From positions 1 through 45,721 of the forward strand of contig JAUSHI010000009.1 in NCBI GenBank assembly GCA_030648055.1: a DNA stretch of 45,721 bases, read 5' to 3'. Within the stretch, counting starts at the first letter, position 1; every line of letters begins with the position of its first letter. This stretch comes from a bacterium (GTDB lineage Bacteria > Patescibacteriota > Minisyncoccia > Sungbacterales > SURF-37). Positions 6,195 through 42,058 of the stretch are shown piece by piece. The position numbers were made by a program, and so were the translations under genes. The notes below the pieces were generated by a model. The model was not told the origin of the DNA. It saw only the letters and a list, made by a program, of their open reading frames with translations, and searched no databases.

Positions 6195-6313
6195 CCCCGT
6201 TAGAAGTCGCGGACGCTTCTGGAGTTTTTGCAACTCTATAGCGTGGTGTCAATCAAGAAAATGTATAGCTTTTAAGGTAGAAATATTATGGCCGCGTCCT
6301 ACTTCTAACGGGG
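6195..6313. mobile_element. Family A inverted-repeat element inserted at a -35 box
   Basis: TTGA|CCCCGTTAGAAGT...ACTTCTAACGGGG|TTGA; 119 bp. Confidence 0.8.
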
Positions 6314-6370
6314 TTGACAAATACTTATTTTAGGGGTATAATTGCCGTAATAGTAAAAATGCTCTTTAAA
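6314..6370 (+). promoter_or_regulatory. Consensus sigma70 promoter followed by a boxA-like motif
   Basis: TTGACA (6314), 17 bp spacer, TATAAT (6337). TGCTCTTTAAA at 6360-6370. Confidence 0.8.
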
Positions 6371-6497
6371 TAAGTCGGTTTTTGGCGGAATTGGGGTTTC
6401 AATTTGGTTCCCGACCCTCCTCGGCGATCAAATTCCGGTTCTACCGGAGTTGAGGCCCCTATTCTGCCAAAAATCTAAAAATAAGGGGGACACTACG

Positions 6498-6740
6498 ATG
6501 TTTATGCACAACATGCTTCAGAGTGAGGTTGCCGCCTTTGTGGCGACAACATTCCCGAAGTGGGTACTCGGTGCGGCAGAAGGCGAGCAGCCCTACACGG
6601 TTGATCCGCGATGGGGTTCGTCGTTTTACTGCATATGTGACCTTTGCAAAGCACCGGTGCTCAAAGACGTGAACGCGATGCTCGGTCACCGAAATCATCA
6701 TGTCATCACAGGCGACATCGTCCTGGGAAAGGGGAAATGA
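6498..6740 (+). CDS. Small hypothetical protein with a C2H2 zinc-finger-like motif
   Basis: SD-like AAGGGGG upstream; CDLC-x13-HRNHH. Confidence 0.55.
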   Translation: MFMHNMLQSEVAAFVATTFPKWVLGAAEGEQPYTVDPRWGSSFYCICDLCKAPVLKDVNAMLGHRNHHVITGDIVLGKGK

Positions 6741-6741
6741 G

Positions 6742-6942
6742 ATGCTCAAGATTTTCGCTGGCTTCATGATCTGGTTGCTCTTTGCCGGCGTGTCGCGGAC
6801 GCGACGCCCGAGCGGCCGAAGCGAGCGAGCTTCTTCGGCTCGTGGTCCGCATTCGCCACCCCGGCTCGGCGCCCGGCCACGAGCCCGCGGGTCCAGGTCG
6901 TCCCGGCCTCCATGCTTCGCCGACTGGCGGCGAGGATGGTGA
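6742..6942 (+). CDS. Possible small protein (hydrophobic N-terminus, Arg-rich tail)
   Basis: ATG immediately after the previous stop, with AAGGGG upstream; MLKIFAGFMIWLLFAG. The tail looks like an off-frame translation. Confidence 0.3.
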   Translation: MLKIFAGFMIWLLFAGVSRTRRPSGRSERASSARGPHSPPRLGARPRARGSRSSRPPCFADWRRGW

Positions 6943-6992
6943 GGCCCTTCGCCCGCAAACCCTCGGTTTAGGAAGACCGGGAAGGAGATGCC

Positions 6993-7142
6993 ATGGCGGA
7001 GGAAGCGCAGGCCGTAACTTCCAAGAAGGAGATCGAAAAGTTCATCATTTGGCGCCGGCCCATTCGTATGGATGCCGGTCTGGTGGCGATTCCATTCGAT
7101 CTCCGCGATTCCAACCGTGGAGATCACAGCGCTACGAAGTAG
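6993..7142 (+). CDS. 49-aa hypothetical protein (not in the ORF track)
   Basis: Strong SD GAAGGAG; MAEEAQAVTSKKEIEKFIIWRRPIRMDAGLVAIPFDLRDSNRGDHSATK. Confidence 0.5.
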   Translation: MAEEAQAVTSKKEIEKFIIWRRPIRMDAGLVAIPFDLRDSNRGDHSATK

Positions 7143-7300
7143 CCCCCAACTCCCGACTACGCGCAAAACATCGCGCGCCGTCGGGACTCTATCAGATTCT
7201 GTGAGAATGCGCATGTCCAGAAACCATAAAAAAGACATTAGGCGTATTCTTGCGGAATCTGATAGGGTAGTTCGTTTCAAATTAATTTAATAAGGTTCGT

Positions 7301-7377
7301 AGGCCCGTAGCTCAAACGGTTAGAGCACGCGATCTATAATCGCGAGGTTGAGCGTTCAAATCGCCCCGGGCCTACCA
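7301..7377 (+). tRNA. tRNA-Ile(UAU), atypical
   Basis: Acceptor AGGCCCG/CGGGCCT, anticodon arm CGCGA-TCTATAA-TCGCG, T loop TTCAAAT, encoded CCA. Has C33 and one T-stem mismatch. Confidence 0.8.
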
Positions 7378-7386
7378 AAAACTTAT

Positions 7387-7463
7387 GCAGCCGTAGCCTA
7401 GTCCGGCAAGGCATCTGACTTTTAAGCAGGAGACCGCAGGTTCAAATCCTGCCGGCTACACCA
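7387..7463 (+). tRNA. tRNA-Lys(UUU), atypical
   Basis: Acceptor GCAGCCG/CGGCTAC (one C-A mismatch), loop CTTTTAA, T arm GCAGG-TTCAAAT-CCTGC, encoded CCA. Confidence 0.78.
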
Positions 7464-7486
7464 AATTTAGAGAAAAGAGAAAAGAT

Positions 7487-7570
7487 ACCGGAGTGGCGAA
7501 ATTGGGAGACGCGCCTGGTTTAAGCCCAGGTGTCCGCAAGGATGTGCGGGTTCAACCCCCGCCTCCGGTA
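7487..7570 (+). tRNA. tRNA-Leu(UAA)
   Basis: Acceptor ACCGGAG/CTCCGGT, CCTGG-TTTAAGC-CCAGG, long variable arm TCC-GCAA-GGA, discriminator A. Confidence 0.88.
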
Positions 7571-7617
7571 TCAAAAAACTGGCGGCAGTGGCTAAACGCA
7601 AAATAAAGAGAGAGGGG

Positions 7618-7836
7618 GTGAGGAAGACGGGTCGTGCGGAAGCGAAAATCTTTGAGGTGTTTGTCACCGGCGGCGGGCTGGAATCAATCGTGGAACGCGC
7701 GCTTGCCAATTACGTGGCCAAGCTCGTCGACGATCTCGTGTTTGTGGCCGAATCGGCTGGTCTATCCGAGACAGAGGCTCGGGCCACACTACGCCGCTGC
7801 GTGAGGAAGGCGTGCCGAGCGCTAGGCGGCGTCTAA
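7618..7836 (+). CDS. Small helical hypothetical protein
   Basis: GTG after purine-rich GAGAGAGGGG; protein-like amphipathic sequence; followed by a terminator. Confidence 0.5.
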   Translation: MRKTGRAEAKIFEVFVTGGGLESIVERALANYVAKLVDDLVFVAESAGLSETEARATLRRCVRKACRALGGV

Positions 7837-7841
7837 GTAAC

Positions 7842-7892
7842 ACGGCCACCGACAGTCTCGCGAAGCGGGGCAAGTCGGTGGCCGGTTTTTTT
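7842..7892 (+). terminator. Rho-independent terminator closing the accessory tRNA operon
   Basis: GGCCACCGAC...GTCGGTGGCC followed by a T run. Confidence 0.7.
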
Positions 7893-8016
7893 AATTTAAT
7901 CTCATAAAATATATCAAATAAAACCGGTCGGTTTTATTTGATACTAAGGCACGAAGCGCTGTAAAGCATGGCGATAATGAATATGTTGTACAAATATATG
8001 ATGATATAATTTAAAC

Positions 8017-9804
8017 ATGGCATCGGAGAAAAAATTACCAATTAAAGAGGGTTTGCGGGTAATCCGCCGTTCACTCCTTCCCCATAAGAAGGAGTTTTTA
8101 GTCGTGGTCGGGTTGAGCGTTGTACTTGCCGGGGCTAATGCCGTTGTACCCTATATATCCGGCCGGTTGTTTGATGCGATTCTTCATCCTGTGGAGACTG
8201 AAGTCCCTGCTGTAGCGATTAAAATTTCTTCTGTTTTTTTAATGCTCGGAATTTGGACATTTTTACAGTTAGTGGTGGATGCCATGGATTGGCAAAAAGG
8301 CGCGCGACAGGAAAAGTTAAGCGCCGAATTGGAAGCCGACTATCTTGTTCACGGTTTTTCGCGGCTTCTTGAACTGCCGCTTTCGTTTCACAAAACACAA
8401 AAAATGGGCGAAGTGATAAATCGGATTTCTCGCGGCTCCTCTTGGCTTGAAAATTTGGTGAATCGTTTGTTTATTGATCTCTTGCCGCAATTTTTGAGCA
8501 TTATTTTTGCTTTTGCCATCGTGGCATTCGTTCAATGGCGCTTGGCACTCGTGCTTTTCACGGCTATTTTACTTTACGCGCTTCTTTTAACACAGACCGC
8601 GCCGAAGCTTGGTTCAATTTCACGGAAAATGCACCGCGCTTATAACGATGCTTGGGGTTACGCGCACGATGTTGTTTTGAATGTGCAATCGGTAAAGCAG
8701 GCGACTGCCGAGAAGCATGAACGCAAGCAATTTTTTAAATATTATCATACGCGCGCGGCGAATTTGTGGACGCGCTATATGCAAATTTGGCAGCAGTTGA
8801 CACTCTATCAGCGGCTTATTGTTACCGCGATGCAGTTCGGCGTTTTTCTTTATTCAATTTTTCTTATTCAAAGAGGTGTTATTACTCCGGGTGAGCTTGT
8901 GGCGTTTAACGCGTACGCGGCCATGGTTGTCGGACCATTTGTGATTCTGGGCCGTAATTGGGATTTGGTTCAAAACGGTTTTGTAGCGATTGACCGCGCG
9001 GAAAAAATTATAAATCGCGACCCGGAGCCGTATCAGCCCAAAGGGGCAGTCATACTTTCTGACATTAACGGAGCGGTGGAGTTTCGCGATGTGTCATTTC
9101 GTTATCCGGGCAAAAAACAATATGTGCTGAAGAATGTTTCTTTTGTTGTTGAGCAGGGCAGGACCGTGGCATTGGTGGGAGAATCGGGCGTGGGCAAATC
9201 TACTCTTGCCGATTTAATTTCGCGCTATTTTACTCCGGCGGAAGGGAAAGTATATATTGACGGACACGATATTCGGCGGATTGATCTTGCCACGCTTCGC
9301 GCGCATATTGCCGTAGTGCCGCAGGAAATTTTGCTCTTCAACGAAACGGTAAAAGAAAATATCCGCTACGGTTCTTTTCTGGCTAGTGATGAAGCTGTTG
9401 TTGAGGCGGCGAAAAAAGCTCATGCCGACGATTTTATTCAGAATTTTCCTAAAAAATACGGTCAGATTGTGGGCGAGCGGGGCATTAAACTTTCGGTCGG
9501 ACAGAAACAGAGAATTGCCATTGCTCGTGCCATTCTTAGGAATCCCAAAATTTTGATTTTGGATGAGCCGACCTCTGCGCTTGATGCCGTGTCTGAACGG
9601 TTTATTCAGGAGTCGCTTGAAATTCTTATGCGCGGCAGGACCACCTTTATTATCGCCCATCGTTTAAGCACGGTCAGAGAGGCTGACACGATTTTGGTTT
9701 TGGAAAAAGGCCGGGTCATTGAGAAGGGCACCCACAACGAGTTGCTTAAAATTAAAGGAGGGGTGTATAAGAAATTATACGAGATGCAGATTGGAATGAG
9801 GTAA
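8017..9804 (+). CDS. ABC exporter, fused permease/ATPase (MsbA/Sav1866-like)
   Basis: N-terminal TM domain; [31 protein letters not shown] and IAHRLST. Confidence 0.95.
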
Positions 9805-9880
9805 ACCTTCGCACTTAATTTTATTTTTTGTGTCTTCGTAGCTTCCGCCCGAGGCGGCACTACTTTTGGCGGACAGTGGA

Positions 9881-9992
9881 CCCCGCACTAAAAATATGCG
9901 CCCGTAGCTCAACTGGATAGAGCATCGGCCTCCGAAGCTGAAGGTTACAGGTTCGAATCCTGTCGGGCGCGAATGCATATTTTAGTGCGGGG
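9881..9992. mobile_element. Family B inverted-repeat element carrying a tRNA gene
   Basis: CCCCGCACTAAAAATATGC ... GCATATTTTAGTGCGGGG (18 bp complementary, one bulge). Confidence 0.75.
9898..9971 (+). tRNA. tRNA-Arg(CCG)
   Basis: Acceptor GCGCCCG/CGGGCGC, TCGGC-CTCCGAA-GCTGA, ACAGG-TTCGAAT-CCTGT; CCA not encoded. Confidence 0.93.
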
Positions 9993-10061
9993 CAGGTGCC
10001 GCGCGGCCATCCGAGGGCTGTAATGGCAGTTCGAATCTGCCCGAGGACACAATTGTAGAAT

Positions 10062-10114
10062 TGAAGAGGCCGCAGGTTTAAATTCCTGCCTGCCGGCAGG
10101 TCGCCGAGGGTGCA
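10062..10114 (+). pseudogene. Degenerate tRNA 3' half with a CCTGCCTGCCGGCAGG palindrome
   Basis: AGGCC-GCAGG-TTTAAAT-TCCTGC...CGAGGGTGCA resembles variable loop, T arm and acceptor; palindrome at 10085-10100. Confidence 0.4.
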
Positions 10115-10151
10115 AAAATAGTTTTAAAAAAACACGCCGGTTGGCGTGTTT

Positions 10152-11171
10152 TTATTTTAGTCGGTTGTTGAAGTGGTTGAAAATTTTATAATCGGCATAG
10201 TGTCCTCCAAAAATGGTGAGCGAGAGCAAAAACGCGAATTTGTGTCCGGTGCTGTATTCAACGCGTTCCGGACGGCCGAGCGCTTCCCAGAGCGACTCAA
10301 CAGAGTATTTTCCGAACCAGCGGTCGTCCTCGGCGCTGATAAAAAGCACGCGCGCTGGATTAATCATTTTAGCCCATGTTGAGGGGTCAACGCTTGCGAG
10401 CTGCGAGAGAATTTTCTTTTCAAACATTTCCGCATTCCAGCCGAATCTGTTCATGGTTATTTCGCGGGTCCTTTTGAGGCCGGGTTCGTCCGATATCGCG
10501 AACACATTGTGAAACTCGCCGCCGCCTTTATCAAAAACTCCGGCTTTTATTCTCGGGTCGGATGCCATGGCAATTACAGAGATTGATGCCGCGATTGAGC
10601 CGCCGACGATGCCGATGTTTTTTGAATCAATTTCTTCTCTGGTTTCCGCCCAGGTTATCAGGCGGCGGACATCAATAACGTAGTTATTGATGGCATTAGC
10701 CGACGCTTCAACGGCTTGCATAAATTTTGTTTCTGTTTTCGCTCTCTGCATTTCTTCAAGATACAATATCTTTTTTGTGTCTTTAAGGAGGAGAACATTA
10801 AAATCGTCATTGTCGCCCCACGATGTCATGACATGCGCATAGTGCGCACCCACGAACGGTGTGCTATCCATAATCGGCAGAACGATGATGAGTTTTTTCT
10901 TTCCGCCAGTTTTTTGGGCCCAGTATTCGGCTTTCACCACTTCATGTTCGTTGATAGACGGAAAGGTGATGATGTGTCTGGAAATTTTTTCCTCATTGGG
11001 CGACCAGCCGCGAGTAATTGTTGCGGTGGGGATTTGCGGGCGAGAGGAGAAATTAGGAATTCTTCGCGATGGCGGTCTTTCTCCCGCAGGCGGGGATTCG
11101 TGGCGCACGGTTATACAGCTGGGCAAAAAAATAATGAGAAGAATAAGCGTAATTTTACCGAAGATACTCAT
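10152..11171 (-). CDS. Alpha/beta-hydrolase fold protein, probable lipoprotein
   Basis: Hydrophobic signal ending FLPSC; IGIVGGSIAA nucleophile elbow, AEDD acid and TGH histidine. Start taken at ATG 11171 (alternative GTG 11183). Confidence 0.75.
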   Translation of the reverse strand: MSIFGKITLILLIIFLPSCITVRHESPPAGERPPSRRIPNFSSRPQIPTATITRGWSPNEEKISRHIITFPSINEHEVVKAEYWAQKTGGKKKLIIVLPIMDSTPFVGAHYAHVMTSWGDNDDFNVLLLKDTKKILYLEEMQRAKTETKFMQAVEASANAINNYVIDVRRLITWAETREEIDSKNIGIVGGSIAASISVIAMASDPRIKAGVFDKGGGEFHNVFAISDEPGLKRTREITMNRFGWNAEMFEKKILSQLASVDPSTWAKMINPARVLFISAEDDRWFGKYSVESLWEALGRPERVEYSTGHKFAFLLSLTIFGGHYADYKIFNHFNNRLK

Positions 11172-11185
11172 TTTAGACCCCACTT

Positions 11186-11238
11186 TGTTAAAGAACCTTG
11201 TTTATTAATGTGATAGCAATATAATTCTGCGTGGTCAA
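11186..11238 (-). promoter_or_regulatory. sigma70 promoter plus boxA-like motif
   Basis: Minus strand: TTGACC, 17 bp, TATCAC, then GTTCTTTAACA. Confidence 0.6.
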
Positions 11239-11369
11239 CCCGCCCCAGCCTTACCAATTTATTAGTTCATTCAGTCAAATTTAACTGATAGGAAATTTTT
11301 GACTGAAAAAGGTGCAAGAAGAAAATGTAGCCAACATAAGGGGGGCAATTGGCAAACCCCAATGAGCAG

Positions 11370-11398
11370 TTGACAAATTAGCTGTTTTATGATAACAT
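11370..11398 (+). promoter_or_regulatory. sigma70 promoter
   Basis: TTGACA, 17 bp, TAACAT. Confidence 0.6.
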
Positions 11399-11471
11399 AG
11401 TAAATACTAGCACATTTCCATCATTGTTCGAAAACATCCACATCCAACACCCGAAAGGGAGGAGAAGAGAG

Positions 11472-12176: not shown

Positions 12177-12219
12177 AGGGGACGAAGTGTAGCTCGGCTA
12201 TACTCCATCAATCAGAAGC

Positions 12220-12272
12220 ATCCCGCTCCGGGTTCGCGTCTAATCTAAGACGCGAGCTCGGGCGGGATTTTT
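12220..12272 (+). terminator. Long hairpin terminator
   Basis: ATCCCGCTCCGGGTTCGCGTCT...AGACGCGAGCTCGGGCGGGAT followed by T run. Confidence 0.65.
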
Positions 12273-12352
12273 ACTTTTCCCAATTTTCTTTGCGAGCCAA
12301 GCGGGCATCTGGGAAATTGGTACTGGGGTTATTTGGGGATATAATGAACATA

Positions 12353-13702: not shown

Positions 13703-13821
13703 TATAATTATAAACATGAATCTGCCCAATTTTTTGGGTAGCCCGTAATTAGTAAAAAGACCTTTAAGGCGCAGAAGCCTTCGCAATATATGCGGATGCC
13801 TCACGCCAAAAAGTTGAGCAG

Positions 13822-14394: not shown

Positions 14395-14405
14395 TTTAAA
14401 TTTAT

Positions 14406-15999: not shown

Positions 16000-16042
16000 A
16001 AAGAGAGCGGGGAAATATTTTAAAATATAAAATTTTATTTTA

Positions 16043-16561: not shown

Positions 16562-16637
16562 AAATAAAGGATTTGTTTTTATTTTCTTTGTGTGATACTA
16601 ATATAGTGATCTTTGATAAAAATACCGGAGGTGGATA

Positions 16638-17084: not shown

Positions 17085-17181
17085 TAAATTTCGCCGCACT
17101 ACGCGGCCTTTTTTATTTACGATAAGTGAGTTATAATTTTGATAACAAATGTGCGTATTTTAGTCGTTAAAATTATAAATT

Positions 17182-17841: not shown

Positions 17842-17849
17842 AAACTAAT

Positions 17850-17878
17850 AAGCCCCGACTGAGGTCGGGGCTTATTTG
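17850..17878 (+). terminator. Hairpin terminator
   Basis: AAGCCCCGAC-TGAG-GTCGGGGCTT. Confidence 0.65.
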
Positions 17879-21211: not shown

Positions 21212-21222
21212 ATAGCGATTTT

Positions 21223-21993
21223 ATGGAAAACGCCGTCTTAATACAATCTTTGATAGTTGCCGGCATAATAGGCATTGCTTCCGGAGCAATTGGCGCGTTT
21301 ATTATTTTACGGCGTATGGCGCTTGTCGGGGACGCACTTTCTCATGTAGCACTTCCGGGTATCGCGCTCGCTCTTATATATAAAATTGACCCCTTTTGGG
21401 GAGTGCTCGTGTTCCTTCTTGGCGCGGCCTTACTTATTTGGTGGCTTGAGGGCAAAACAAAACTGCCGACCGAAGCCATTGTCGGACTTCTTTTTACAAC
21501 AAGTCTCGCGATAGGTGTTATGCTTATTCCCGACATTGAACTAATTGAATCTCTTTTTGGCGCCTTCCCGAAGCTTTCTTTGTTTGAATTTATTTTTATT
21601 CTTGTTTTCGCGAGTGCTTCAGTTGTTTGTGTGTTTTTGCTCACGAAGAAATTTCTATTCAGCGTTGCCTCGCCTGAACTTTTTCAGTTGGATGACCCGA
21701 AAAGGCGCGTCCAGCTTTTGCTGTTGATTATTTTTTCTTTTACCGTAGCCCTCGGCATCAAGCTTTTGGGGGCACTTCTTATGGGCGCTTTAACCATAAT
21801 TCCCGCAGCTATCGCTAAAAATATGGTGAGATCCGCAACTGGCTATATTATTGCGAGTATTCTTTTGGGTGGCGGAATTGCGCTCTCCGGCTTTTTAATC
21901 GCTTTTTATTATGGATTTTTGCCGGGGCCTACTATTATACTTTTTGGGGTAGCCGTTTTTTTGCTTTCGCTTGTGGTAAAAAGAAGGAGTTGA
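21223..21993 (+). CDS. Metal (Zn/Mn) ABC transporter permease, ZnuB-like
   Basis: RRMALVGDALSHVALPGIA (ABC-3 motif). Confidence 0.9.
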   Translation: MENAVLIQSLIVAGIIGIASGAIGAFIILRRMALVGDALSHVALPGIALALIYKIDPFWGVLVFLLGAALLIWWLEGKTKLPTEAIVGLLFTTSLAIGVMLIPDIELIESLFGAFPKLSLFEFIFILVFASASVVCVFLLTKKFLFSVASPELFQLDDPKRRVQLLLLIIFSFTVALGIKLLGALLMGALTIIPAAIAKNMVRSATGYIIASILLGGGIALSGFLIAFYYGFLPGPTIILFGVAVFLLSLVVKRRS

Positions 21994-22050
21994 TTAAGCC
22001 GCAAATAACAACAAAAAATACCCCCGTCGGGGGGATTGTGAAAGCAGTTT

Positions 22051-22395
22051 TTATTTAACCGCTTCAACTATTTTTTTGAATATCTGCGGCTCTTTTTCGG
22101 CAAATTCCGCCAGAATTTTCCGGTCTAGTTCAATATTTTTCTTCTTTAACGCCGCTATAAATTTTCCGTAAGGCAGGCCATTTTCGCGCGAGGCGGCGTT
22201 AATTTGCACGTTCCATAATTTTCTAAAGTCGCGTTTTTTTAACTTCCGCGATTTGAATTGATACGCCCAGGCGTGAAGCACGGCTTCTTGGGCGGCGCGC
22301 GCTTTGGATTTTCTACCCCATTTAAATCCTCTGGTATGGCGAAGCAGGCGCTCTCTTTTTTTGTGGGCTATTGTTCCTCGTTTTACTCTGGTCAT
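22051..22395 (-). CDS. rplT: 50S ribosomal protein L20
   Basis: MTRVKRG...KKRDFRKLW...INAA...LDRKILA. Confidence 0.97.
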   Translation of the reverse strand: MTRVKRGTIAHKKRERLLRHTRGFKWGRKSKARAAQEAVLHAWAYQFKSRKLKKRDFRKLWNVQINAASRENGLPYGKFIAALKKKNIELDRKILAEFAEKEPQIFKKIVEAVK

Positions 22396-22449: not shown

Positions 22450-22641
22450 TTATATTGACTGAAGGTAACGCTTCATCATTTTTCCGTATGTTCCTGTCAC
22501 TTCTACCTTTTCCGAATGGCGGCGTTGGGCCCGGCGCGACTCTTTGGCGTTAAAATGGTTCACGTGACTTTTCCGCCGAATGAGTTTTCCGGTTTTGGTT
22601 ATTCTGATGCGTTTTTGAATTGATTTATTTGGTTTATTCAT
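22450..22641 (-). CDS. rpmI: 50S ribosomal protein L35
   Basis: KRIRITKTGKL...H; located between infC and rplT. Confidence 0.92.
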   Translation of the reverse strand: MNKPNKSIQKRIRITKTGKLIRRKSHVNHFNAKESRRAQRRHSEKVEVTGTYGKMMKRYLQSI

Positions 22642-22763
22642 CCCATTAGAAGCAGGTCACGGTCTGCGCCTGTTGATTACTATATTGATGGTTTATAATT
22701 TTCTTTGTCATAATATTAATGATGCATAATATTTCCCGTACTGCGGCCGCGGCTTCTAACGGG
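22642..22763. mobile_element. Family A element inserted at the rpmI start codon
   Basis: Minus strand: ATGAAT|CCCGTTAGAAGC...GCTTCTAATGGG|ATGAAT; 122 bp. Confidence 0.85.
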
Positions 22764-23286
22764 ATTCATCGGCTTTTTTTGTTTGGGTTAGCCCGTGAAT
22801 AGTAACCGTAAATCCTTGCGGGCTTGATTTAATCGGCGCTTCTTTTTCGTGGCCCGGGATAAGCGCTAAAAATTCTTCAAATCTTTTTTTAGCGAAATCG
22901 CGATGCGCTTTTTCTCTGCCTCTTAAAACGATATCTATGCGGACTTTATTTCTGCCTTCTAAGAATTTTTTTGCCTGATTGGCGCGCATTTCAAGATCGT
23001 GCAGGCCGGTGGCATAGCCGATTCTCAGCATTTTGGTTTCAACCTCCTTTTGCTTTGAGCGGTGTTCGCGCTCGCCCCGTTCGCGCTCGTATTTGAATTT
23101 ACCGAAATCGGCGATTTTTACGACTGGCGGGTTGGCGGTCGGCGAGATCTCAATAACATCAAGACCGCGTTCCTGGGCGATTTTAAGTGCTTCCTCAATC
23201 GGCATGACGCCGAGTTGGCCCTTATCGTCAACCACTCTTACCGGGGAAAGCCGTATTTGTTGATTTATGCGGTAACGTTTTTGGAT
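22756..23286 (-). CDS. infC: Translation initiation factor IF-3, probable ATC start
   Basis: Frame extends upstream of GTG 23235 to give (I)QKRYRINQQIR..VRVVD. An in-frame TAA lies four codons before ATC 23286. PPVVKIADFGKFKYE and LRGRE are present. Confidence 0.93.
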   Translation of the reverse strand: MQKRYRINQQIRLSPVRVVDDKGQLGVMPIEEALKIAQERGLDVIEISPTANPPVVKIADFGKFKYERERGEREHRSKQKEVETKMLRIGYATGLHDLEMRANQAKKFLEGRNKVRIDIVLRGREKAHRDFAKKRFEEFLALIPGHEKEAPIKSSPQGFTVTIHGLTQTKKADESR

Positions 23287-25076: not shown

Positions 25077-25529
25077 TTAACCAATCTGATTTTTTATCGC
25101 GCGTTCTATTTTTCTTGCGTCTTCGCGTTCGCGAATCGCCTGGCGTTTATCGCGCCCTTGTTTGTGTCGCGCTAATGCCAGTTCTATCTTGATTCGCGAT
25201 TTCTTATCATACACCCGAATTGGCACTAAAGTCAAGCCCTTTTCGGCAGTTTTTCCTATCAGTTCTTTTATTTCCGATTTGTGGAGCAGTAATTTTCGCG
25301 AGCGGTCCGGGTCATAATTTGCCGGAGTGTTTTTTGCCTGGTATGGCGGAATTGAGGCGTTTATAAGCCAGGCCTCGCTACCCTTAATTACAACATAAGA
25401 CCCCGCGAGATTGACGCGGCCGTTTTTGATCGCTTTGACTTCAAAACCGAAAAGCTCAATCCCGGCCTCGTATTTTTCAAGGACCTCGTAATCAAAAAGC
25501 GCCCGTTTGTTGACTGAATATATTTTCAT
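25077..25529 (-). CDS. smpB: SsrA-binding protein
   Basis: NKRALFDY..LEKYEAGIELFGFEVKAIK, RSRKLLLHKSEI and DKRQAI. True start is ATG 25529; the extra N-terminus in the track derives from the repeat. Confidence 0.97.
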   Translation of the reverse strand: MKIYSVNKRALFDYEVLEKYEAGIELFGFEVKAIKNGRVNLAGSYVVIKGSEAWLINASIPPYQAKNTPANYDPDRSRKLLLHKSEIKELIGKTAEKGLTLVPIRVYDKKSRIKIELALARHKQGRDKRQAIREREDARKIERAIKNQIG

Positions 25530-25651
25530 CCCGTTAGAGATGGGAAATGCTTTAGGCATTCCCGTTTGTTGTGATATGTGGCTATGGTTTTTGACATGAT
25601 AATGTTGCTGAACGATTGTGCGGGCAAAGTAAAGCCCGGATCTTTAACGGG
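25530..25651. mobile_element. Family A element inserted at the smpB start codon
   Basis: Minus strand: ATGAAT|CCCGTTAAAGAT...ATCTCTAACGGG|ATGAAA; 122 bp. Confidence 0.85.
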
Positions 25652-25744
25652 ATTCATCTCTAATTCAAAGGTAGCACACGCTGGCTGTTTTTTGAAAAAG
25701 AAAAAACGAGGCATTGCCTCGTTTATTTTGTCTGCTGGTTTTTA

Positions 25745-32168: not shown

Positions 32169-32765
32169 ATGTACGTTACTGACGCTATTATTCTAAAAAA
32201 AGAACCGGTGGGTGAAGCCGATGTGCTCGTGACCGCGCTTACTGATCGCTTCGTCAGAATTCGGCTTGTCGCGCAAGGGGCGCGCAAGGTCGGCGCCAAG
32301 CTCAAGGGTCACCTTGAGCCGTTGTCTCTTTCGCGGTTTTCTTTTGTCGTGGGAAGGAAAAATTATCGCCTGATAGGCGCGGAACTTCAGGATTTTTTTC
32401 CGATAATTAAAAATGAACCCGAGCGTTTTCGCGTCGCAACGGAAATTGCGTCAGTTTTAGACAGCGTTCTTTTTGAAGATGTTGCCGAAAAGAACGGTAA
32501 TTTTTTTGCCATCGCTCATGAAGCGCTTAAATTTATTAATGAGCCGTTAAATTCCATAAAGGATTGCGAGCTGGCGTTTCTTTGGTTTAGAACACAATTT
32601 TTACGGGAGTCGGGCCTTCTTCCTGAAAATGCGGAGGAGTTATTTGTTGCGAAAGGGGGCGAATATACGCCCTGCGGCGATTTTGTGTCGCTTTGCGGCG
32701 AGCCGCAAGCATTAAGGCTTAGAGAGTCTATCTCACAGATTTTTAGAGAATACTTACCCCGTTAG
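32169..32765 (+). CDS. recO: DNA repair protein RecO
   Basis: AIILKK..VGEAD...AQGARK..AKLKGHLEP. Confidence 0.85.
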   Translation: MYVTDAIILKKEPVGEADVLVTALTDRFVRIRLVAQGARKVGAKLKGHLEPLSLSRFSFVVGRKNYRLIGAELQDFFPIIKNEPERFRVATEIASVLDSVLFEDVAEKNGNFFAIAHEALKFINEPLNSIKDCELAFLWFRTQFLRESGLLPENAEELFVAKGGEYTPCGDFVSLCGEPQALRLRESISQIFREYLPR

Positions 32766-32793
32766 AACAGCCTTCTGTGTTATAATAAAAAGC

Positions 32794-34695: not shown

Positions 34696-34722
34696 ACGTG
34701 TTATTATTTTAACTTCATGAAT

Positions 34723-34840
34723 CCTGTTAGAGATCCAAATGTTATGTATTGCAAACAGCTTAAAATATATCTTAAAAAGCCGAGTCGTTTGTTATCCGTC
34801 GTTAACCAACGGAAATCTTTGATTTCCTATTTCTAACAGG
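34723..34840. mobile_element. Family A element inserted at the glyQS start codon
   Basis: ATGAAT|CCTGTTAGAGAT...ATTTCTAACAGG|ATGAAG; 118 bp; compensatory C>T/G>A change in both arms. Confidence 0.85.
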
Positions 34841-36223
34841 ATGAAGTCTCAAGAAAATCCGCTGATGGAAAAAATTATGTCGCTTGCCAAGCGCAGGGGG
34901 TTTATATTTCAAGGTTCGGAAATTTACGGTGGTCTTGCGGGCACATGGGACTACGGTCCGATGGGTGCTCTTTTAAAACAAAACATTAAACGCGAGTGGT
35001 GGCGGATGTTTGTTACTCTGCGGGAAGACATGTACGGTGTTGATACGGCGATTTTGATGAACGAGAAAGTGTGGGCGGTCTCCGGGCATATTAAAAATTT
35101 TGTTGACCCGATGGTTGATTGCAAGAAATGCAAAATGCGGTATCGGGCGGATAAATTAGCTGGGGTCACTATTACTCCCACGAAGCATCAAGAATCAAAT
35201 GTAAATAGTTATTTTATTGAAGGATGGGAAAATATTGAATGTCCGAATTGCCATACAAAAGGCGACTGGACTGCGGTGCGTCCGTTCAACATGATGTTCA
35301 AAACCCACGTCGGGCCGGTGGAGGACACTTCCGCGGAAACGTATCTTCGTCCGGAGACCGCGCAGGGCATGTTTGTTAATTTTAAAAATGTGCTTGATTC
35401 CATGCATCCGAAACTGCCTTTTGGAATGGCGCAAATAGGCAAGGCGTTTAGAAATGAAATTACGCCGGGAAATTTTATTTTCCGCACGCGGGAATTTGAG
35501 CAGATGGAAATTGAATATTTTATAAGGGCCGAAGAATGGGAAACGCAATTTGAATATTGGCAAGCTCAAATAAAATCTTGGCTCGCGCATATCGGAATTG
35601 CGAATGGGGTGCATGAGCGCGAGGTGCCCAAAGAGGAGAGAGCGCACTATTCACAGAGAACCGTGGATATTGATTTTGATTTTCCGTTTGGCCGCGAAGA
35701 ATTATACGGCCTTGCGTATCGGGGAGATTTTGATTTGAAAAATCACACTGAAAAATCCGGCGTTTCGCTTGAGTATTTTGATGAAGAGATAAAGAAAAAG
35801 TTTATTCCTCACGTAATTGAGCCGACTTTTGGGGTGGATAGGACCGTTTTAGCCCTTCTGGCCTCGGCTTTTAGCGAGGAAGAAGACAAAGACGGGATGC
35901 GAATAGTATTAAAATTATCTCCACGCGTCGCGCCTTTTACAGCCGCTGTGTTTCCACTGCTTGCCAATAAGCCCGCGCTTATTGACAAAGCAAAGGATAT
36001 ATTTCATAATTTAAATACGCATTTCTCCGCGGCTTGGGACGACATAGGCAATATCGGCAAGCGTTATCGCCGACAGGACGAGATCGGCACGCCGTGGTGC
36101 GTTACCGTGGACTTTCAGACGCTTGAAGACGAGACGGTAACTGTTCGCGACAGGGATACGATGAAACAGGAGCGGATTCCACTTAAAGAGCTGGTTCAGT
36201 ATTTTTCAGAGAAATTAAAATAA
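34841..36223 (+). CDS. glyQS: Glycine--tRNA ligase (alpha2 type)
   Basis: KRRGF...IYGG, YLRPETAQG, FRNEITP, REFEQME and IGKRYRRQDEIGTP. Confidence 0.97.
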   Translation: MKSQENPLMEKIMSLAKRRGFIFQGSEIYGGLAGTWDYGPMGALLKQNIKREWWRMFVTLREDMYGVDTAILMNEKVWAVSGHIKNFVDPMVDCKKCKMRYRADKLAGVTITPTKHQESNVNSYFIEGWENIECPNCHTKGDWTAVRPFNMMFKTHVGPVEDTSAETYLRPETAQGMFVNFKNVLDSMHPKLPFGMAQIGKAFRNEITPGNFIFRTREFEQMEIEYFIRAEEWETQFEYWQAQIKSWLAHIGIANGVHEREVPKEERAHYSQRTVDIDFDFPFGREELYGLAYRGDFDLKNHTEKSGVSLEYFDEEIKKKFIPHVIEPTFGVDRTVLALLASAFSEEEDKDGMRIVLKLSPRVAPFTAAVFPLLANKPALIDKAKDIFHNLNTHFSAAWDDIGNIGKRYRRQDEIGTPWCVTVDFQTLEDETVTVRDRDTMKQERIPLKELVQYFSEKLK

Positions 36224-36228
36224 ATAGT

Positions 36229-37500: not shown

Positions 37501-37509
37501 AAATAATTT

Positions 37510-38565
37510 ATGCCCGTAAAACAGATTCAAAAAATAGATGTTACACTTGGAACATTTCTCCGATTTTTTGCCGTGGCGATTTTGATTTTTCTTGCTTATT
37601 ATCTTTTGCAAATGATCGCGGCTATACTTTTTGCCATCGTTATCGCCTCAGCCATTGAGCCGATTATTAACTGGTTAGGCCGGCGCCATGTTTCACGCAT
37701 TATCACCGTTATACTGATTTATCTTTTTGCGGCTATGGTTTTTGCGGGGTTGGTTTATCTTGTTTTACCGGCAGTCGCGACCGAATTGCAGAATTTTATT
37801 TCTTCATATCCGATTTATCAGCGCGAGCTTCTCAGTGAAATCCAAGCAGTAACAGGCATTCCGCTACTTAGTTTTTTGTCGGATAATTCGCAGAGCATTT
37901 TAATTTCATCCCCCGACCAGCTGACCCAGCTTGCCCAGAGTACATTTCAGTTAACGATTAATGTTTTTGGAGGATTGATGCTGGCGATTATAACGGCAGT
38001 TATCTCTTTTTATCTTGCCACGCAAAAAAATGGGATTGAAAATTTTTTGCGGCTTGTCACACCTCTTGAGTATGAGGAATACGCGGTTGACCTTTGGATA
38101 AGGGCGCAGAAAAAAATGGGACAGTGGTTGCGAGCCCAGCTTATTCTCGGCCTCATTGTCGGTGTTTTAGTTTATATCGCCTTAACACTTCTTGGCATAC
38201 GCTTCGCGCTTATATTTGCGGCACTTACCGCTATTCTTGAAATTATACCGGTTATCGGGCCTATTCTTGCCGCGGTACCCGCGGTAGTCATTGCTTTTGT
38301 ACAGAGCCCCGTTTTGGGTCTCACCGTTATTGTGACTTATTTCATTATTCAGCAAATTGAAAGTCACTTAATAGTTCCGACCGTGATGCGGAGAACTGTT
38401 GGATTGAATCCTCTCGTGGTTATTTTAGCGCTTCTTATCGGCGGAAAGCTCGGCGGAGTGTTGGGACTTCTTTTGGCCGTTCCCCTAGCCAGCGTCGTGG
38501 TTGAATTTTTGAGCGATACTGACAGAAAAAAGCGCGGCCTTTTTCAATACGGCGGAGGCAGTTAA
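37510..38565 (+). CDS. AI-2E family transporter
   Basis: EIIPVIGP and QQIESHLIVP...GLNPL motifs. Confidence 0.9.
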   Translation: MPVKQIQKIDVTLGTFLRFFAVAILIFLAYYLLQMIAAILFAIVIASAIEPIINWLGRRHVSRIITVILIYLFAAMVFAGLVYLVLPAVATELQNFISSYPIYQRELLSEIQAVTGIPLLSFLSDNSQSILISSPDQLTQLAQSTFQLTINVFGGLMLAIITAVISFYLATQKNGIENFLRLVTPLEYEEYAVDLWIRAQKKMGQWLRAQLILGLIVGVLVYIALTLLGIRFALIFAALTAILEIIPVIGPILAAVPAVVIAFVQSPVLGLTVIVTYFIIQQIESHLIVPTVMRRTVGLNPLVVILALLIGGKLGGVLGLLLAVPLASVVVEFLSDTDRKKRGLFQYGGGS

Positions 38566-38638
38566 AATTTCCAAGAAGTACAATTTTTATGTAAGATAGA
38601 AAGGGTTTACGCCCTTTTTATTAATAGGCTATAAAACA

Positions 38639-40114
38639 ATGAAGAAAAGCAAAAAGTATTATATAACTACGGCTATTGATTATGTGAATGCCAAGCCACA
38701 TATTGGACATGCCTTAGAAAAAATTCAGGCAGATGTTTTGGCTCGTTTTCACCGTATTAAAGGTGAGGATGTTTTCTTTTTAACCGGAACTGACGAGCAT
38801 GGGGTGAAAATTGTCCGCGCGGCTGAATTAGCTGGTAAAAACCCCAAAGATTTTGTTGATGAAAATGCGGAGAGTTTTAAGGCCTTAAAAAAGGCGCTGA
38901 ATTTATCTTGGGATTCATTTTTAAGAACTTCAGATCAAAAGCGGCATTGGCCGGGGGCGGAAAAGCTATGGCTAAAGCTTAAAGAAGCGGACGACCTGTA
39001 TAAAAAAAAATATCGCGGATTTTATTGCGTGGGTCATGAGGCGTTTGTGACGGAAAAAGATCTGGAGGACGGAAAGTGCCGCGATCATCAAAAGGCGCCG
39101 GAGACGGTTGAAGAAGAGAACTGGTTTTTCCGGCTTTCTAAATACGGCGAGAGGATTAAAGAAGAGATTGAGTCAGGGCGTCTAAAAATTATTCCGGAAT
39201 CGCGTAAAAACGAGATTCTTTCTTTGATTAACGAAGGCCTTGAAGATGTGAGTTTTTCCCGTCCGCGCAAGGATTTGTCGTGGGGCATTCCTGTTCCAGA
39301 CGACCCTGAGCACACCATGTATGTTTGGTGCGACGCGCTTGCCAACTATATTACCGCCATCGGCTATGGCCAAGAGCAATCTACAACCTTTGACAAATGG
39401 TGGCCTGCCGACCTTCATGTAATAGGCAAGGATATTTTGAGATTTCATTCCGCGATTTGGCCGGGCATGCTTTTGTCAGCCGGGCTTCCCCTGCCGAAGG
39501 CAATTTTTGTTCACGGCTTTATCACCGTTGAGGGCCAGAAAATGTCTAAAACCATCGGCAATGTGATTGACCCGCTTGAGCTTGTAAAAAAATACGGCAC
39601 CGATCCGGTGCGTTATTATTTGCTTCGCGAAATTCCTTCCCACGAAGACGGCGATTTTAGTTATAAAAAATTTGAAGAACGATATAACGGAGATCTTGCC
39701 AATGGTATCGGCAATCTCACGGCGAGAGTCGCCACTTTAGGGGAGAAGACCGGCGAGATACATTTTGGTTTTGAAAAAGACATTGAAGAGACGATCCGTG
39801 TTTTGTGTCAGGCCGAGTTTAAGGAGTACGAGCGTCATATTGATAAGTTCTGTTTTAATGAAGCGCTTGCAAATGTTTGGCGGCTTGTTTCGTTGGGAGA
39901 CAAATATATTAACGATAAAAAGCCGTGGACGGTAAAAGACGGCGGGGAATTAAAAAAAATACTTTTAAACGCGGGTTATATTATTTCCACCATTGCCAAT
40001 CTCTTAGAGCCATTTTTACCGGAAACGGCGGCAAAGATAAAAGAGCAGATTTATATTGAGGACTCGGTTTTGAAAATAAAAAAAGGCGGGAATTTATTCC
40101 CGCGACTTGCTTGA
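38639..40114 (+). CDS. metG: Methionine--tRNA ligase
   Basis: YVNAKPHIGH, GTDEHG, YVWCDAL, GKDILRFH and KMSKT. Confidence 0.97.
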   Translation: MKKSKKYYITTAIDYVNAKPHIGHALEKIQADVLARFHRIKGEDVFFLTGTDEHGVKIVRAAELAGKNPKDFVDENAESFKALKKALNLSWDSFLRTSDQKRHWPGAEKLWLKLKEADDLYKKKYRGFYCVGHEAFVTEKDLEDGKCRDHQKAPETVEEENWFFRLSKYGERIKEEIESGRLKIIPESRKNEILSLINEGLEDVSFSRPRKDLSWGIPVPDDPEHTMYVWCDALANYITAIGYGQEQSTTFDKWWPADLHVIGKDILRFHSAIWPGMLLSAGLPLPKAIFVHGFITVEGQKMSKTIGNVIDPLELVKKYGTDPVRYYLLREIPSHEDGDFSYKKFEERYNGDLANGIGNLTARVATLGEKTGEIHFGFEKDIEETIRVLCQAEFKEYERHIDKFCFNEALANVWRLVSLGDKYINDKKPWTVKDGGELKKILLNAGYIISTIANLLEPFLPETAAKIKEQIYIEDSVLKIKKGGNLFPRLA

Positions 40115-40115
40115 T

Positions 40116-41018
40116 ATGACATCCTTGAAACTTTTTGATGTTCATACTCATGTGCAGTTCGCCGCGTTTGAAAAAGATTATGATGCGGTAATTAGACGTG
40201 CCCTTGGCGGCGGCGTCTGGCTGGTAAATGTTGGTACGCAAAAAGATACTTCCGCAAGCGCGGTTAAAATCGCGGAGCAATTTTCCGAAGGCGTATACGC
40301 AACAGTTGGTTTGCATCCGATTCATACCGAGAAGTCGTATCACGATGAAAAGGAACTTGGCGTGCCGCCTTTTGTATTCTCTAATTCGAGCGAATTAGAG
40401 AATAGCTCGGGAGGATTTAAGAGCCGCGGCCTCGCCTTCGTTAAAACTTCGGCGGACAAGGAGGATTTCGATTATAAATATTACAAAAAACTTGCTCTGC
40501 ATCCGAAAGTCGTTGCCATAGGCGAGTGCGGTCTTGATTATTACCGGCTTGAGCCTGAATCAAAAAAGAAACAAGAAGAGGTGTTTATTCAGCATGTGGA
40601 GCTGAGTCATGAGGTTAAAAAACCCCTGATGATTCACTGCCGCGATGCTTTTGGCGATTTAGTTAAAATTCTAGATGATAGGTCTCGGTTTCTAAATTCT
40701 CGGCCGGGCATTATCCATTTTTTCAGCGGAAATCTTGATAACGCGAAAAAACTTTTGAATCTCGGTTTTTCGTTTTCTTTCGGCGGGGTTATAACTTTTA
40801 CTCGCGACTATGACGAGGTTATAAAATATCTTCCGCTTGATCGCATATTGCTTGAAACCGACGCGCCCTATGTTACTCCTATACCTTATCGCGGAAAGCG
40901 CAATGAGCCGGCATATATTGCGGAGGTTGCCAAGAAACTCGCTGACATTAAAGGCGTTCCTTTTGAGGAAGTAGCGGATAGCACCACGAAAAATTCAAGG
41001 AGTATGTTCGTAGTTTAA
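40116..41018 (+). CDS. tatD: TatD family DNase with two in-frame repeat insertions
   Basis: DVHTH, GLHP, AIGECGLDY, IHCR and ETDAPY...GKRNEP. Start is ATG 40116 or TTG 40107. Confidence 0.93.
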   Translation: MTSLKLFDVHTHVQFAAFEKDYDAVIRRALGGGVWLVNVGTQKDTSASAVKIAEQFSEGVYATVGLHPIHTEKSYHDEKELGVPPFVFSNSSELENSSGGFKSRGLAFVKTSADKEDFDYKYYKKLALHPKVVAIGECGLDYYRLEPESKKKQEEVFIQHVELSHEVKKPLMIHCRDAFGDLVKILDDRSRFLNSRPGIIHFFSGNLDNAKKLLNLGFSFSFGGVITFTRDYDEVIKYLPLDRILLETDAPYVTPIPYRGKRNEPAYIAEVAKKLADIKGVPFEEVADSTTKNSRSMFVV

Positions 41019-41054
41019 TATAAAAATAAAATCCCCGGATAGGGGATTTTTCAT

Positions 41055-41150
41055 CCCCACACCCAGAAGACGCAAGCATTCAGATTGTGGGCAATGGGCG
41101 GGCCAAAAAGTAATTTTAAAAAATGCCCAGCCTTTGGGCTGGGTGTGGGG
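41055..41150. mobile_element. Family B inverted-repeat element without coding cargo
   Basis: CCCCACACCCAG ... CTGGGTGTGGGG, a perfect 12-bp inverted repeat. Confidence 0.65.
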
Positions 41151-41153
41151 GGT

Positions 41154-41651
41154 TTATTTTTCGCCTAGGTCTTCCAGCCCCATGCTTTTTAAAAATCTTC
41201 GCGTCTCTTCGTTCGATAAGAGTTTACCGTCTGATGGAGGGTTAAGCGTTCGTTCTTCCCCGTCTTTGTGGTCAGCCCGTGCGTCGGTTTGTTCCCCATA
41301 GAACATTGATAGGTCGACTTCTATACCTTCCGCCCGTACTTCAACGTGTCCGGTATAAGAGAACCGGTAACATAGCGTCAGGTGGGCGTGTATGGCCGAT
41401 TTGTCTTCCGCGGGCCAGTCTTGAACGATAAGATGTTTGACTGTGAATGTGTTACCTTCCATGGTCAAATAGCTACTTTTTTGGTAAACACACACGGATA
41501 CCTTTACTGCGAGAAATTGCTCTTCAAATTCTTTATTTTTTGGGAAAAGTCTGTCAGCTTCAGAAGTTTTGCCATTGAACCGCAGAATAAGCAGTTTTTG
41601 CAAAAAACTGCCGAATTCTTGCATAAGACTCGCAAGCTCAGCGTGGTTCAT
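41154..41651 (-). CDS. Hypothetical protein
   Basis: 165-aa ORF; SD AAGGTGG; promoter TAGACC-17-TATGCT; boxA-like TGTTCTTTAAAC. Confidence 0.7.
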   Translation of the reverse strand: MNHAELASLMQEFGSFLQKLLILRFNGKTSEADRLFPKNKEFEEQFLAVKVSVCVYQKSSYLTMEGNTFTVKHLIVQDWPAEDKSAIHAHLTLCYRFSYTGHVEVRAEGIEVDLSMFYGEQTDARADHKDGEERTLNPPSDGKLLSNEETRRFLKSMGLEDLGEK

Positions 41652-41767
41652 GGGACGCCACCTTTTTGTAATTTAGTTTAAAGAACAATATATTACGAGC
41701 ATACCATTAAATTATGCCGCGGTCTATTTTTTGTAATTTAAAGCGCGGCTTATTTTGGCGGGACTTG

Positions 41768-41884
41768 CCCCGTTAGAAATAGAACGCGCGCATTCTGAGT
41801 ATCGTCGCGGGAAATAATACGGTGTAATTGCTGCGACAGCATAAATATAAAATAAAAGACCCGTGTTCGCGATTTCTAACGGGG
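41768..41884. mobile_element. Family A element next to a -35 box
   Basis: CTTG|CCCCGTTAGAAAT...ATTTCTAACGGGG|CTTG, then TTGAGA-16-TATAAT; 117 bp. Confidence 0.8.
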
Positions 41885-41943
41885 CTTGAGAAAAACGCAT
41901 TAATGACTATAATATGAAGAGCTTTGTCTATGCGTTCATAACT

Positions 41944-42058
41944 CCCGTTAGAAATAGAATGCGAACATCACACCATCGTTGCAAGTGTATAGTACAGCAT
42001 TATTACTGCGACAGCATAAATATAAAATAAATATACGCGTTCGCGATTTTTGACTTGG
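41944..42058. mobile_element. Decayed Family A element, paralog of 41768-41884
   Basis: Left arm CCCGTTAGAAATAGAA; shared CTGCGACAGCATAAATATAAAATAAA and GTTCGCGATTT; right arm eroded to TTTGACTTGG. Confidence 0.75.

Follow-up and report, generated by a model that had tools for sequence, protein, structure and literature searches.

The window examined here is a stretch of 45,721 nt (JAUSHI010000009.1, assembly GCA_030648055.1) that forms contig 5 of the 614.5-kb, 9-contig, 85%-complete assembly of a patescibacterium of the order Sungbacterales. It carries a family of short inverted-repeat elements that adjoin start codons and promoter −35 boxes. Six copies had been picked out in an earlier, sequence-only reading of the window, and direct reading of the DNA finds all six in place. 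The five intact ones have the core CC(C/T)(G/A)TTAGA...TCTAA(C/T)(G/A)GG and are 115–122 bp long, so that the shared termini and near-constant length ascribed to them are seen. Pfam matches to L35, SmpB, class-II GlyRS, LeuRS, IF3 and RecO identify the neighbouring genes. Along the window, with 'proximal' and 'distal' denoting the arm nearer to and farther from the adjoining gene, the features are as follows.

6195–6313, plus strand: copy 1, ending in C..G; TTGA at 6191–6194 and 6314–6317; right end abuts a −35 hexamer
6314–6342, plus strand: sigma-70-like promoter TTGACA-17-TATAAT, 12/12 consensus matches; the right duplication copy forms the first four −35 bases
22641–22764, minus strand: copy 2, subfamily A, ending in T..A; TTCA at 22637–22640 and 22765–22768; fold z −3.0
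22646–22711, minus strand: upstream open reading frame (ORF) of copy 2, 21 codons (MTKKIINHQYSNQQAQTVTCF, then stop), closed by a TAA in the proximal arm, 4 nt upstream of the rpmI ATG
22756–22758, minus strand: TAG stop codon of infC (IF3), given by the distal arm of copy 2
25529–25652, minus strand: copy 3, family B/D, ending in T..A; TTCA at 25525–25528 and 25653–25656; fold z −4.65
25526–25657, minus strand: ORF from the old (distal) ATG, 43 codons, open across all of copy 3; its TGA overlaps the smpB ATG (ATGA)
32758–32766, plus strand: solo arm CCCGTTAGA, which provides recO (32169–32765) with its TAG stop
34722–34841, plus strand: copy 4, family B/D, with CCTG/CAGG ends, ending in T..A; TGAA at 34718–34721 and 34842–34845; fold z −4.7
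34717–34836, plus strand: ORF from the old ATG, 39 codons, open through copy 4 to the proximal-arm TAA, 4 nt before the glyQS ATG
41768–41884, no strand assigned: copy 5, ending in C..G; CTTG at 41764–41767 and 41885–41888; fold z −4.0
41886–41913, plus strand: sigma-70-like promoter TTGAGA-16-TATAAT, 11/12 consensus matches, immediately 3′ of copy 5
41944–42058, no strand assigned: copy 6, 77% identical to copy 5; right arm decayed; fold z −1.1

The flanking duplication is real, but its length, first given as 4–6 bp, is best read as 4 bp plus one outermost complementary pair. The duplications of copies 1 to 5 are, in order, TTGA, TTCA, TTCA, TGAA and CTTG, and beyond the core, copies 1 and 5 have the pair C..G and copies 2–4 the pair T..A. 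The general form of the termini is (T/C)CCCGTTAGA...TCTAACGGG(A/G), with a direct repeat of 4 bp alongside. As RNA, each intact copy folds as a single long hairpin that the termini close; the z-scores range from −3.0 to −4.9, the strongest being copy 1 (−47.8 kcal/mol, z −4.9), which has a pyrimidine bulge, TCCT, in its right arm. Copy 5 has a purine bulge on its left arm and is therefore reversed relative to the promoter at its right. Copy 6, which had been called decayed, has a degraded right end and folds no better than shuffled sequences; it ends 15 nt upstream of the ATG (42073) of leuS, confirmed by Pfam as LeuRS.

Three copies were said to lie on start codons and two on promoters, and both statements hold. 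The A of the start codon is the outermost base of the element at rpmI (22641, minus strand), at smpB (25529) and at glyQS (34841), and a promoter scan returned both promoters. The compensatory change in the glyQS copy (CCTG/CAGG) is also present. Distal arms supply TAG stops to upstream genes, namely infC and, by way of the solo arm at 32758, recO; the same TAG within the arm CCCGTTAG ends both (22756–22758 and 32763–32765). The infC ORF, 22756–23235, comprises IF3_N and IF3_C, and by reading, IF3 would have ended before the insertion at a TAA two codons earlier, a gain of two residues. The ORF listing for the copy 3 region gives 25526–25714. The promoter at 6314–6342 lacks an evident target: downstream of it the largest ORF (6459–7280) is antisense and has no Pfam match, and from 6314 to 7300 there is no Rfam match until the tRNA cluster at 7301–7570.

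Copy number, target duplications and placement

Strict and relaxed scans with manual curation gave about 23 copies in the assembly, among them a mini-palindrome of 28 bp, a copy of 64 bp, two of about 220 bp and a tandem pair with a shared duplication. The view that the interiors are largely unrelated did not survive, as it came from reading only one strand: on the minus strand, copy 2 (core 22642–22763) falls into subfamily A, which has eight members in this genome at 70–87% identity, and the glyQS copy shares 86% identity with one on contig 1 and 66% with the smpB copy in reverse. The two composite copies of about 220 bp (contig 1, 8531–8874; contig 3, 4720–4941) are 70% identical to each other. 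The former makes up the tandem pair with the copy next to it, a single TTCA lying between them, and the tandem copies thus have one duplication in common. In the mini-palindromes the arms are only 6–10 bases apart; they occur at contig 1 39950–39977 of this genome (G000), at G023:C3:22588-22614 and G026:C3:8656-8687, and in the fetched loci L046 (162–188), L047 (5795–5821) and L102 (6015–6041), and could be minimal elements, internal deletions or footprints.

Scanning the genome and its relatives revealed numerous copies with the same ends. An arm pair 85–125 bp apart occurs in 29 of 41 relatives: every one of the 11 from the same family has it, as do 17 of the 29 others in the order. There are up to 19 copies per genome in the 41 genomes against none for a reversed-pattern control, far more than chance would give. 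In an even sample of 401 genomes from the phylum, 33 were positive, concentrated in certain families (control, one genome), and the highest strict count was 28 copies in a 0.8-Mb genome. A scan of public genomes, one per species, gave at least 117 stretches, mostly from Patescibacteria of many named classes; among the matches listed were records labelled Omnitrophota, Planctomycetota/Scalinduaceae, Deltaproteobacteria/Syntrophobacter and Nitrospinota, for which binning errors are possible. Viral contigs contributed four stretches only, and phages are therefore not the main carriers. The amplified interior families differ from genome to genome. In assembled DNA contigs from four groundwater runs, copies from other organisms share the arms, and none of these contigs spans an element of this strain.

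Evidence for insertion comes from a pooled set of 172 distinct copies with perfect 9-bp arms, drawn from this genome and from loci fetched among the matches listed. Their lengths are 91–137 bp, no transposase lies inside them, and the 9–10-bp inverted ends are invariant among the collected copies. An exact 4-bp flanking repeat is present in 115 of the 172. It takes 23 different forms, all of them YNNR and mostly one change or less from TGAA/TTCA, and the outermost pair is complementary in 162 copies (T..A in 91, C..G in 69, G..C in 2). Empty sites were also found: at the orthologous starts of glyQS in 22 relatives and of smpB in 23, the element is lacking and there is just one ATG. These relatives belong to other genera, with 52–77% protein identity, and are not strains, so that the insertions can be called lineage-specific but not dated. 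In one relative (G004, locus L200) a 76-bp arm pair with one arm mismatched, 1042–1117, lies about 380 bp upstream of smpB and not at its start. [quoted passage not shown]

The terminal base had been proposed to regenerate a host signal, and the counts bear this out. The outermost base and the first two flanking bases form an ATG or GTG that opens at least 60 codons in 99 of the 172 copies, whereas each of 16 other offsets holds 0–9; at offset +2 all nine are duplications of TATG, within which the start lies. Copies ending in T..A are found 82 times at starts and 10 times elsewhere. For those ending in C..G the figures are 16 (at GTG, with ATG turned to GTG in 11) and 53. In this genome, 10 of the approximately 23 copies abut ORFs of 63–460 aa with unrelated functions. 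The placement at starts follows in part from a sequence preference. TGAA makes up 57% of the duplicated 4-mers at starts, compared with 19% among the starts available, and in 94 of 99 copies the 4-mer ends in a purine. Outside the coding calls used for the null model, which are crude (567 genes, 82.5% coding), 110 of the 416 ATGAA sites in this genome (26%) are gene starts. Copies with a TGAA/TTCA duplication are at starts in 44 cases and not in 4, and the excess that remains over the 26% expected needs selection or targeting.

A minority of copies abut −35 boxes. Scripted matches at offsets 1–2 number eight, of which five were judged credible, against 0–3 at other offsets. This genome has three such copies with a promoter confirmed by script or tool, and two more at TTGA(C/G) by reading; a few others lie elsewhere. 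Shine-Dalgarno-like motifs precede only 51 of 352 crudely called gene starts of this genome and 8 of 70 insertion sites, and a −10-like hexamer starts 11–14 nt before 25 of 70 old starts compared with 14 of 70 in a control window, with a peak of 13 at −12. A −10-like box, often TGnTAnnnT, also lies 7–10 nt before the smpB ATG of 23 relatives (L200–L222), and across many old starts and the smpB starts such boxes end 6–10 nt upstream. The scarcity of Shine-Dalgarno-like motifs and boxes so near to starts indicate that many target genes are probably leaderless or nearly so, and the sequence suggests that leaderless or near-leaderless mRNAs may be widespread in this order. Bridging of a Shine-Dalgarno sequence by the hairpin, as in T4 gene 38, was rejected as a general mechanism because only 8 of 70 old starts have such a motif.

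Orientation, stem structure and upstream reading frames

Three properties of the elements go beyond what had been described: a near-absolute orientation relative to the gene, a covarying stem-bulge-stem, and upstream ORFs that end at the arm TAA or at ATGA. Beyond 12 bp the arms are asymmetric. In the 44 copies of type A, a stem of 12 bp is followed by a 4-nt bulge confined to one arm (ACCT in 18, ATCT in 17, TCCT in 6) and then by a further 7-bp stem. Changes in the stems are two-sided: position 10 is A-T in 34 and G-C in 10, position 11 G-C in 24 and A-T in 17, position 12 C-G in 35 and T-A in 7, and position 17 G-C in 18 and A-T in 17. In family A the bulged arm is gene-proximal in all 38 start-adjacent copies; orientation is fixed in 15 of 16 copies of family B/D. 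Among related pairs of start-adjacent copies, 379 of 385 have the same orientation and six are opposite, and the gene-sense strand of the interior is A-rich in 77 of 99. An internal promoter facing the gene was considered and rejected, sigma-70-like promoters being present in 5 of 99 copies and in 12 of 99 when reversed.

In every case the sequence at the proximal arm is TAA-CGGG-ATG. This TAA closes an ATG ORF of 10 codons or more in 43 of 99 copies, compared with 12 of 99 read backwards, and the mean stop-free run is 23 codons in the TAA frame as against 14 and 11 in the other two and about 16 backwards (paired Wilcoxon, p = 5e-5). The frame of the old, distal ATG, whose peptides start MNPVR, ends at −7 or +1 in 19 of 70 copies: 13 run to the TAA and 6 to a TGA that overlaps the new ATG. 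One or other kind of upstream ORF is found in 53 of 99 copies, among them all three start-codon copies of the window. Exactly 21 codons are kept in six of the eight subfamily A copies of the genome; of the two copies without the ATG of this ORF, one abuts a promoter and not a gene, and the other (C5 235752) abuts a gene start. Conservation of the encoded peptide was looked for and is weak: differences by codon position are 67/55/76, and 24 codon pairs are synonymous against 98 non-synonymous. It seems to be the open frame that matters, and not its product.

These observations are probably best explained by a new, large and unnamed superfamily of MITE-like, non-autonomous mobile hairpins, the surviving copies of which would be silent through start regeneration and translational coupling. 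An element of about 105–135 bp with 10-bp inverted termini would insert, presumably by the action of an enzyme, with a 4-bp duplication near TGAA/TTCA (in general, YNNR). Genomes of this kind are compact and poor in Shine-Dalgarno sequences, and the copies that persist would mostly be silent insertions, in which the duplication spans bases 2–5 of the gene and the last base of the element, A or less often G, restores the start codon. The element would then become a transcribed 5′ leader in a single orientation, predicted to fold as a stem-bulge-stem hairpin. An upstream ORF beginning at the old ATG, or at an ATG of the A-rich loop, would end at TAA-CGGG-ATG or at the ATGA overlap, and ribosomes translating it may melt the stem and re-initiate on the gene, a form of translational coupling that would account for the insertion being tolerated. 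The TAG of the distal arm could terminate an upstream gene that had overlapped the start, and TAG and TAA together would shut neighbouring reading frames. Insertion of the minority at −35 boxes (TTGA|C) would be equally conservative. Only one orientation gives coupling, which would explain the orientation lock.

The sequence-only reading had allowed that the family might instead be a structured RNA. Shaping at the RNA level is borne out, since orientation is fixed, the stem-bulge-stem covaries and upstream ORFs are enriched; a structured RNA is thus no true rival to mobility. A related alternative is that the arms would primarily be a host RNA signal, such as a processing or stability stem for, e.g., RNase III, or a translational regulator located in 5′ leaders and among tRNAs, and the elements would be exapted leaders that selection retains, by whatever means they spread. 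Covarying stems, the fixed sense orientation and the A-rich sense strand agree with this, as do identical arms across lineages with wholly different interiors and the narrow length range of 107–131 bp despite those unrelated interiors. RNase III itself is named in a passage of PMC12641178 discussing factors analysed in Patescibacteria, a point in its favour. Arm pairs around whole tRNA genes also favour it. At L008, where the neighbours are further tRNA genes, a pair at 1501–1603 surrounds tRNA-Thr (1519–1591), and at L011 a pair at 1501–1607 surrounds tRNA-Leu (1512–1597); others are at G023:C13:19450-19554, G027:C3:67469-67571, G032:C1:255550-255652 and G038:C4:194988-195123. These pairs extend the acceptor stem by 9–12 bp and have no flanking direct repeat, and could represent tRNA cargo or a common processing stem. 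The genes that bear elements are, however, functionally unrelated, their orthologues in 22–23 other genera lack the element, 368 of 401 genomes of the phylum have none, and the variable flanking duplications call for insertion events. A host RNA signal is an unlikely primary role for the arms.

Candidate enzymes and the control of insertion

No transposase had been seen in the window, and in the whole 85%-complete assembly no Y1_Tnp, DDE_Tnp_1, Phage_integrase, Resolvase or rve match was found. The sole match among six mobile-enzyme families is a 338-aa RVT_1 reverse transcriptase (E 7.5e-28) near the end of contig 4 (G000, 21504–22103; L196). Phage_integrase was found in only three of five copy-rich genomes, never adjoining a copy, and in neither G000 nor G023. 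Multiple ORFs of 220–290 aa with a partial Y1_Tnp match (profile positions about 30–120) are present in each of 28 of the order's 41 genomes (relatives G001–G040), and their distribution is unrelated to that of the element. The six families were rejected as candidate movers, as they show neither co-occurrence with the element nor adjacency to it. A non-exhaustive survey of arm pairs 0.7–5 kb apart in three copy-rich genomes (G023, G026, G234) revealed no larger element in which these ends surround a nuclease or transposase. At L031 (G023:C9:36900-43000) arms 5.1 kb apart surround a DNA methyltransferase fused to LexA, what is probably a restriction enzyme, and a large transporter, genes that may be cargo or coincidence. 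No copy matched Rfam, either at the gathering threshold or at E<=5, and a literature search in a limited library returned nothing on these elements.

The reverse transcriptase raises the prospect of RNA-mediated spread, in which template switching from the 5′ AUGAA of a leaderless mRNA onto the element leader would yield a cDNA that recombines into the genome. The sense-only orientation, the position at the presumed mRNA 5′ end and the single RVT_1 gene of the genome speak for it. RVT_1 is, however, present in only two of five copy-rich genomes, the repeat is fixed and not variable in length, and the insertions at −35 boxes and at TAAA would be unexplained. Spread by this route is very improbable.

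Several results weigh against a cut-and-paste element filtered by selection. A symmetric transposase of that type would insert both ways, so the near-absolute orientation lock strains this explanation, and so does the conserved one-sided bulge. Selection would have to account for a 2.5–5-fold excess at starts over sequence-matched sites, and 46 of the 99 start-adjacent copies have no qualifying upstream ORF. Among copies not at starts, the fifth base is repeated in 36 of 45 against 44% expected (p = 7e-7), which a plain 4-bp staggered cut does not predict. Copies within the genome are only 70–87% identical, which argues against recent bursts in it. An autonomous element was also not found in 1 Mb of fetched loci; arm pairs 1–5 kb apart enclose peptidase-like, cytochrome-like, FemAB-like and ribosomal protein genes, and a restriction-modification pair with a transporter. 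Each of Y1_Tnp, DDE_Tnp_1, Phage_integrase, Resolvase, RVT_1 and rve is absent from some copy-rich genomes, and neither Y1_Tnp nor Resolvase follows the element's distribution: the former, which is commoner in genomes lacking the element, occurs in 11 of 12 of these and in 18 of 29 carriers, and the latter in 4 of 12 and 14 of 29. Finally, the 172 pooled copies are phylogenetically clustered in related genomes, so that counts from them are not independent, and starts outside this genome were called by ORF length alone.

Some of these results would fit an account in which the insertion machinery, and not later selection, sets placement and orientation, either through an enzyme acting on a folded single strand or through a recombinase-type core. 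Insertion would then be one-way, into the ATGAA-like 5′ ends of leaderless genes or into promoter-bound DNA (−35, +2 to +5). Joining the ends gives TCTAACGGG-R-YNNR-Y-CCCGTTAGA, two inverted arms that enclose 6 bp. The orientation lock (38/38 and 15/16) and the asymmetric, conserved bulge on one arm only fit this alternative; in integrons the polarity of attC sites comes from extrahelical bases, which the one-arm bulge resembles. It is also favoured by the bias of the duplicated 4-mer (TGAA, 57% against 19%; purine fourth base, 94/99), the fifth-base repeat in 36 of 45 non-start copies, the −10-like boxes (25 of 70 old starts, control window 14 of 70), the copies abutting −35 boxes (5 credible of 8, against 0–3 at other offsets) and the lack of a classical transposase. 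The counts against it begin with the enzyme, since none was found. Copies of a single family have differing duplicated 4-mers (TGAA, TGGA, TGAG), and no 'guide' position in the arms covaries with them; the copy at 41768–41884 is reversed relative to its −35 box; and closing 120 bp into a double-stranded circle is physically unfavourable. Outside genes, the orientation of element versus duplication could be compared in only three informative pairs, two concordant and one discordant. Guide-target covariation of the IS608 kind was looked for and rejected: its signals only split off the TAAA class, which belongs to other families, and there are none among TGAA, TGGA and TGAG. IS200/IS605-type elements generally insert 3′ of a fixed tetra- or pentanucleotide matched by a guide and make no true duplication; with these, the one-sided 5-nt repeat and the fixed orientation agree, but there is no covariation in the arms and no co-occurrence with Y1_Tnp. 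Control by the insertion machinery is on balance a possible but less favoured account.

A more specific proposal, put forward tentatively, is that of an orientation-specific class of hairpins that home to leaderless first codons and −35 boxes, that is, to promoter-bound or 5′-end DNA. They would be moved by an enzyme outside the known transposase and recombinase families, would silence their insertion at essential genes by an upstream ORF of their own that stops within the terminal repeat and delivers ribosomes, and may have spread among Patescibacteria and at least four other phyla of groundwater and sediment.

Relation to known systems

Patescibacteria have some of the smallest and densest of free-standing genomes and are thought to be poor in mobile elements. 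Here, dozens of copies per 0.6–1 Mb occupy a base-exact position at which insertion need not do harm, and rebuilding of the start may show how a parasite can survive in the tiny genomes of groundwater bacteria, which have almost no spare DNA. If the coupling is true, the element would be a natural, portable 'start-codon adaptor' for translation that is leaderless or independent of Shine-Dalgarno sequences, a means of recognising true start codons and promoters where annotation is difficult, and a handle on a new DNA-handling enzyme. If the placement is enzymatic, it would be a rare case of bacterial insertion aimed at gene starts.

The best-studied functional analogue is the Correia element of Neisseria (CREE/NEMIS), a MITE with a TA duplication that is transcribed into hairpins. 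As in Correia elements and other MITEs, the copies described here are about 100–150 bp long, with terminal inverted repeats, a short duplication and many copies near gene starts; as in Correia elements, whose transcripts form hairpins, the ends are able to restore expression signals. The differences are the termini, the TGAA-like 4-bp duplication in place of TA, the exact position on the start codon, the near-absolute orientation, the upstream ORF ending in an arm and the occurrence in several phyla. Unlike for Correia elements, we know of no parent insertion sequence.

REPs are marked by GTAG or CGTC tags, are mostly located after genes and do not duplicate their target. The present elements recall REPINs in being hairpins of about 100 nt with two inverted arms, a variable middle, long-term residence and no internal transposase. 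REP/REPIN elements go together with the RAYT (Y1 HUH) transposase (see also PMC3733652). They differ from our elements, which have target duplications and for which Y1_Tnp is absent from 11 of 29 carriers and present in 11 of 12 non-carriers.

Integron attC sites are imperfect palindromes of about 60–140 bp, RYYYAAC...GTTRRRY, in arrays beside intI. They share with the present elements conservation only in the ends and the shape, polarity given by unpaired bases on one strand, and a location where one gene finishes and the following gene begins. The box order is inverted, however (GTTAGA...TCTAAC here), and the copies are dispersed at housekeeping genes without forming arrays.

Rickettsia palindromic elements, IStrons and mitochondrial 'byp' elements lie inside genes and are translated in frame, spliced out or bypassed. 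The common theme is that of selfish insertions neutralised at the level of expression in gene-dense genomes. The elements of this study, by contrast, lie outside the coding sequence, rebuild the start codon and, to judge from their reading frames, appear to rely on re-initiation.

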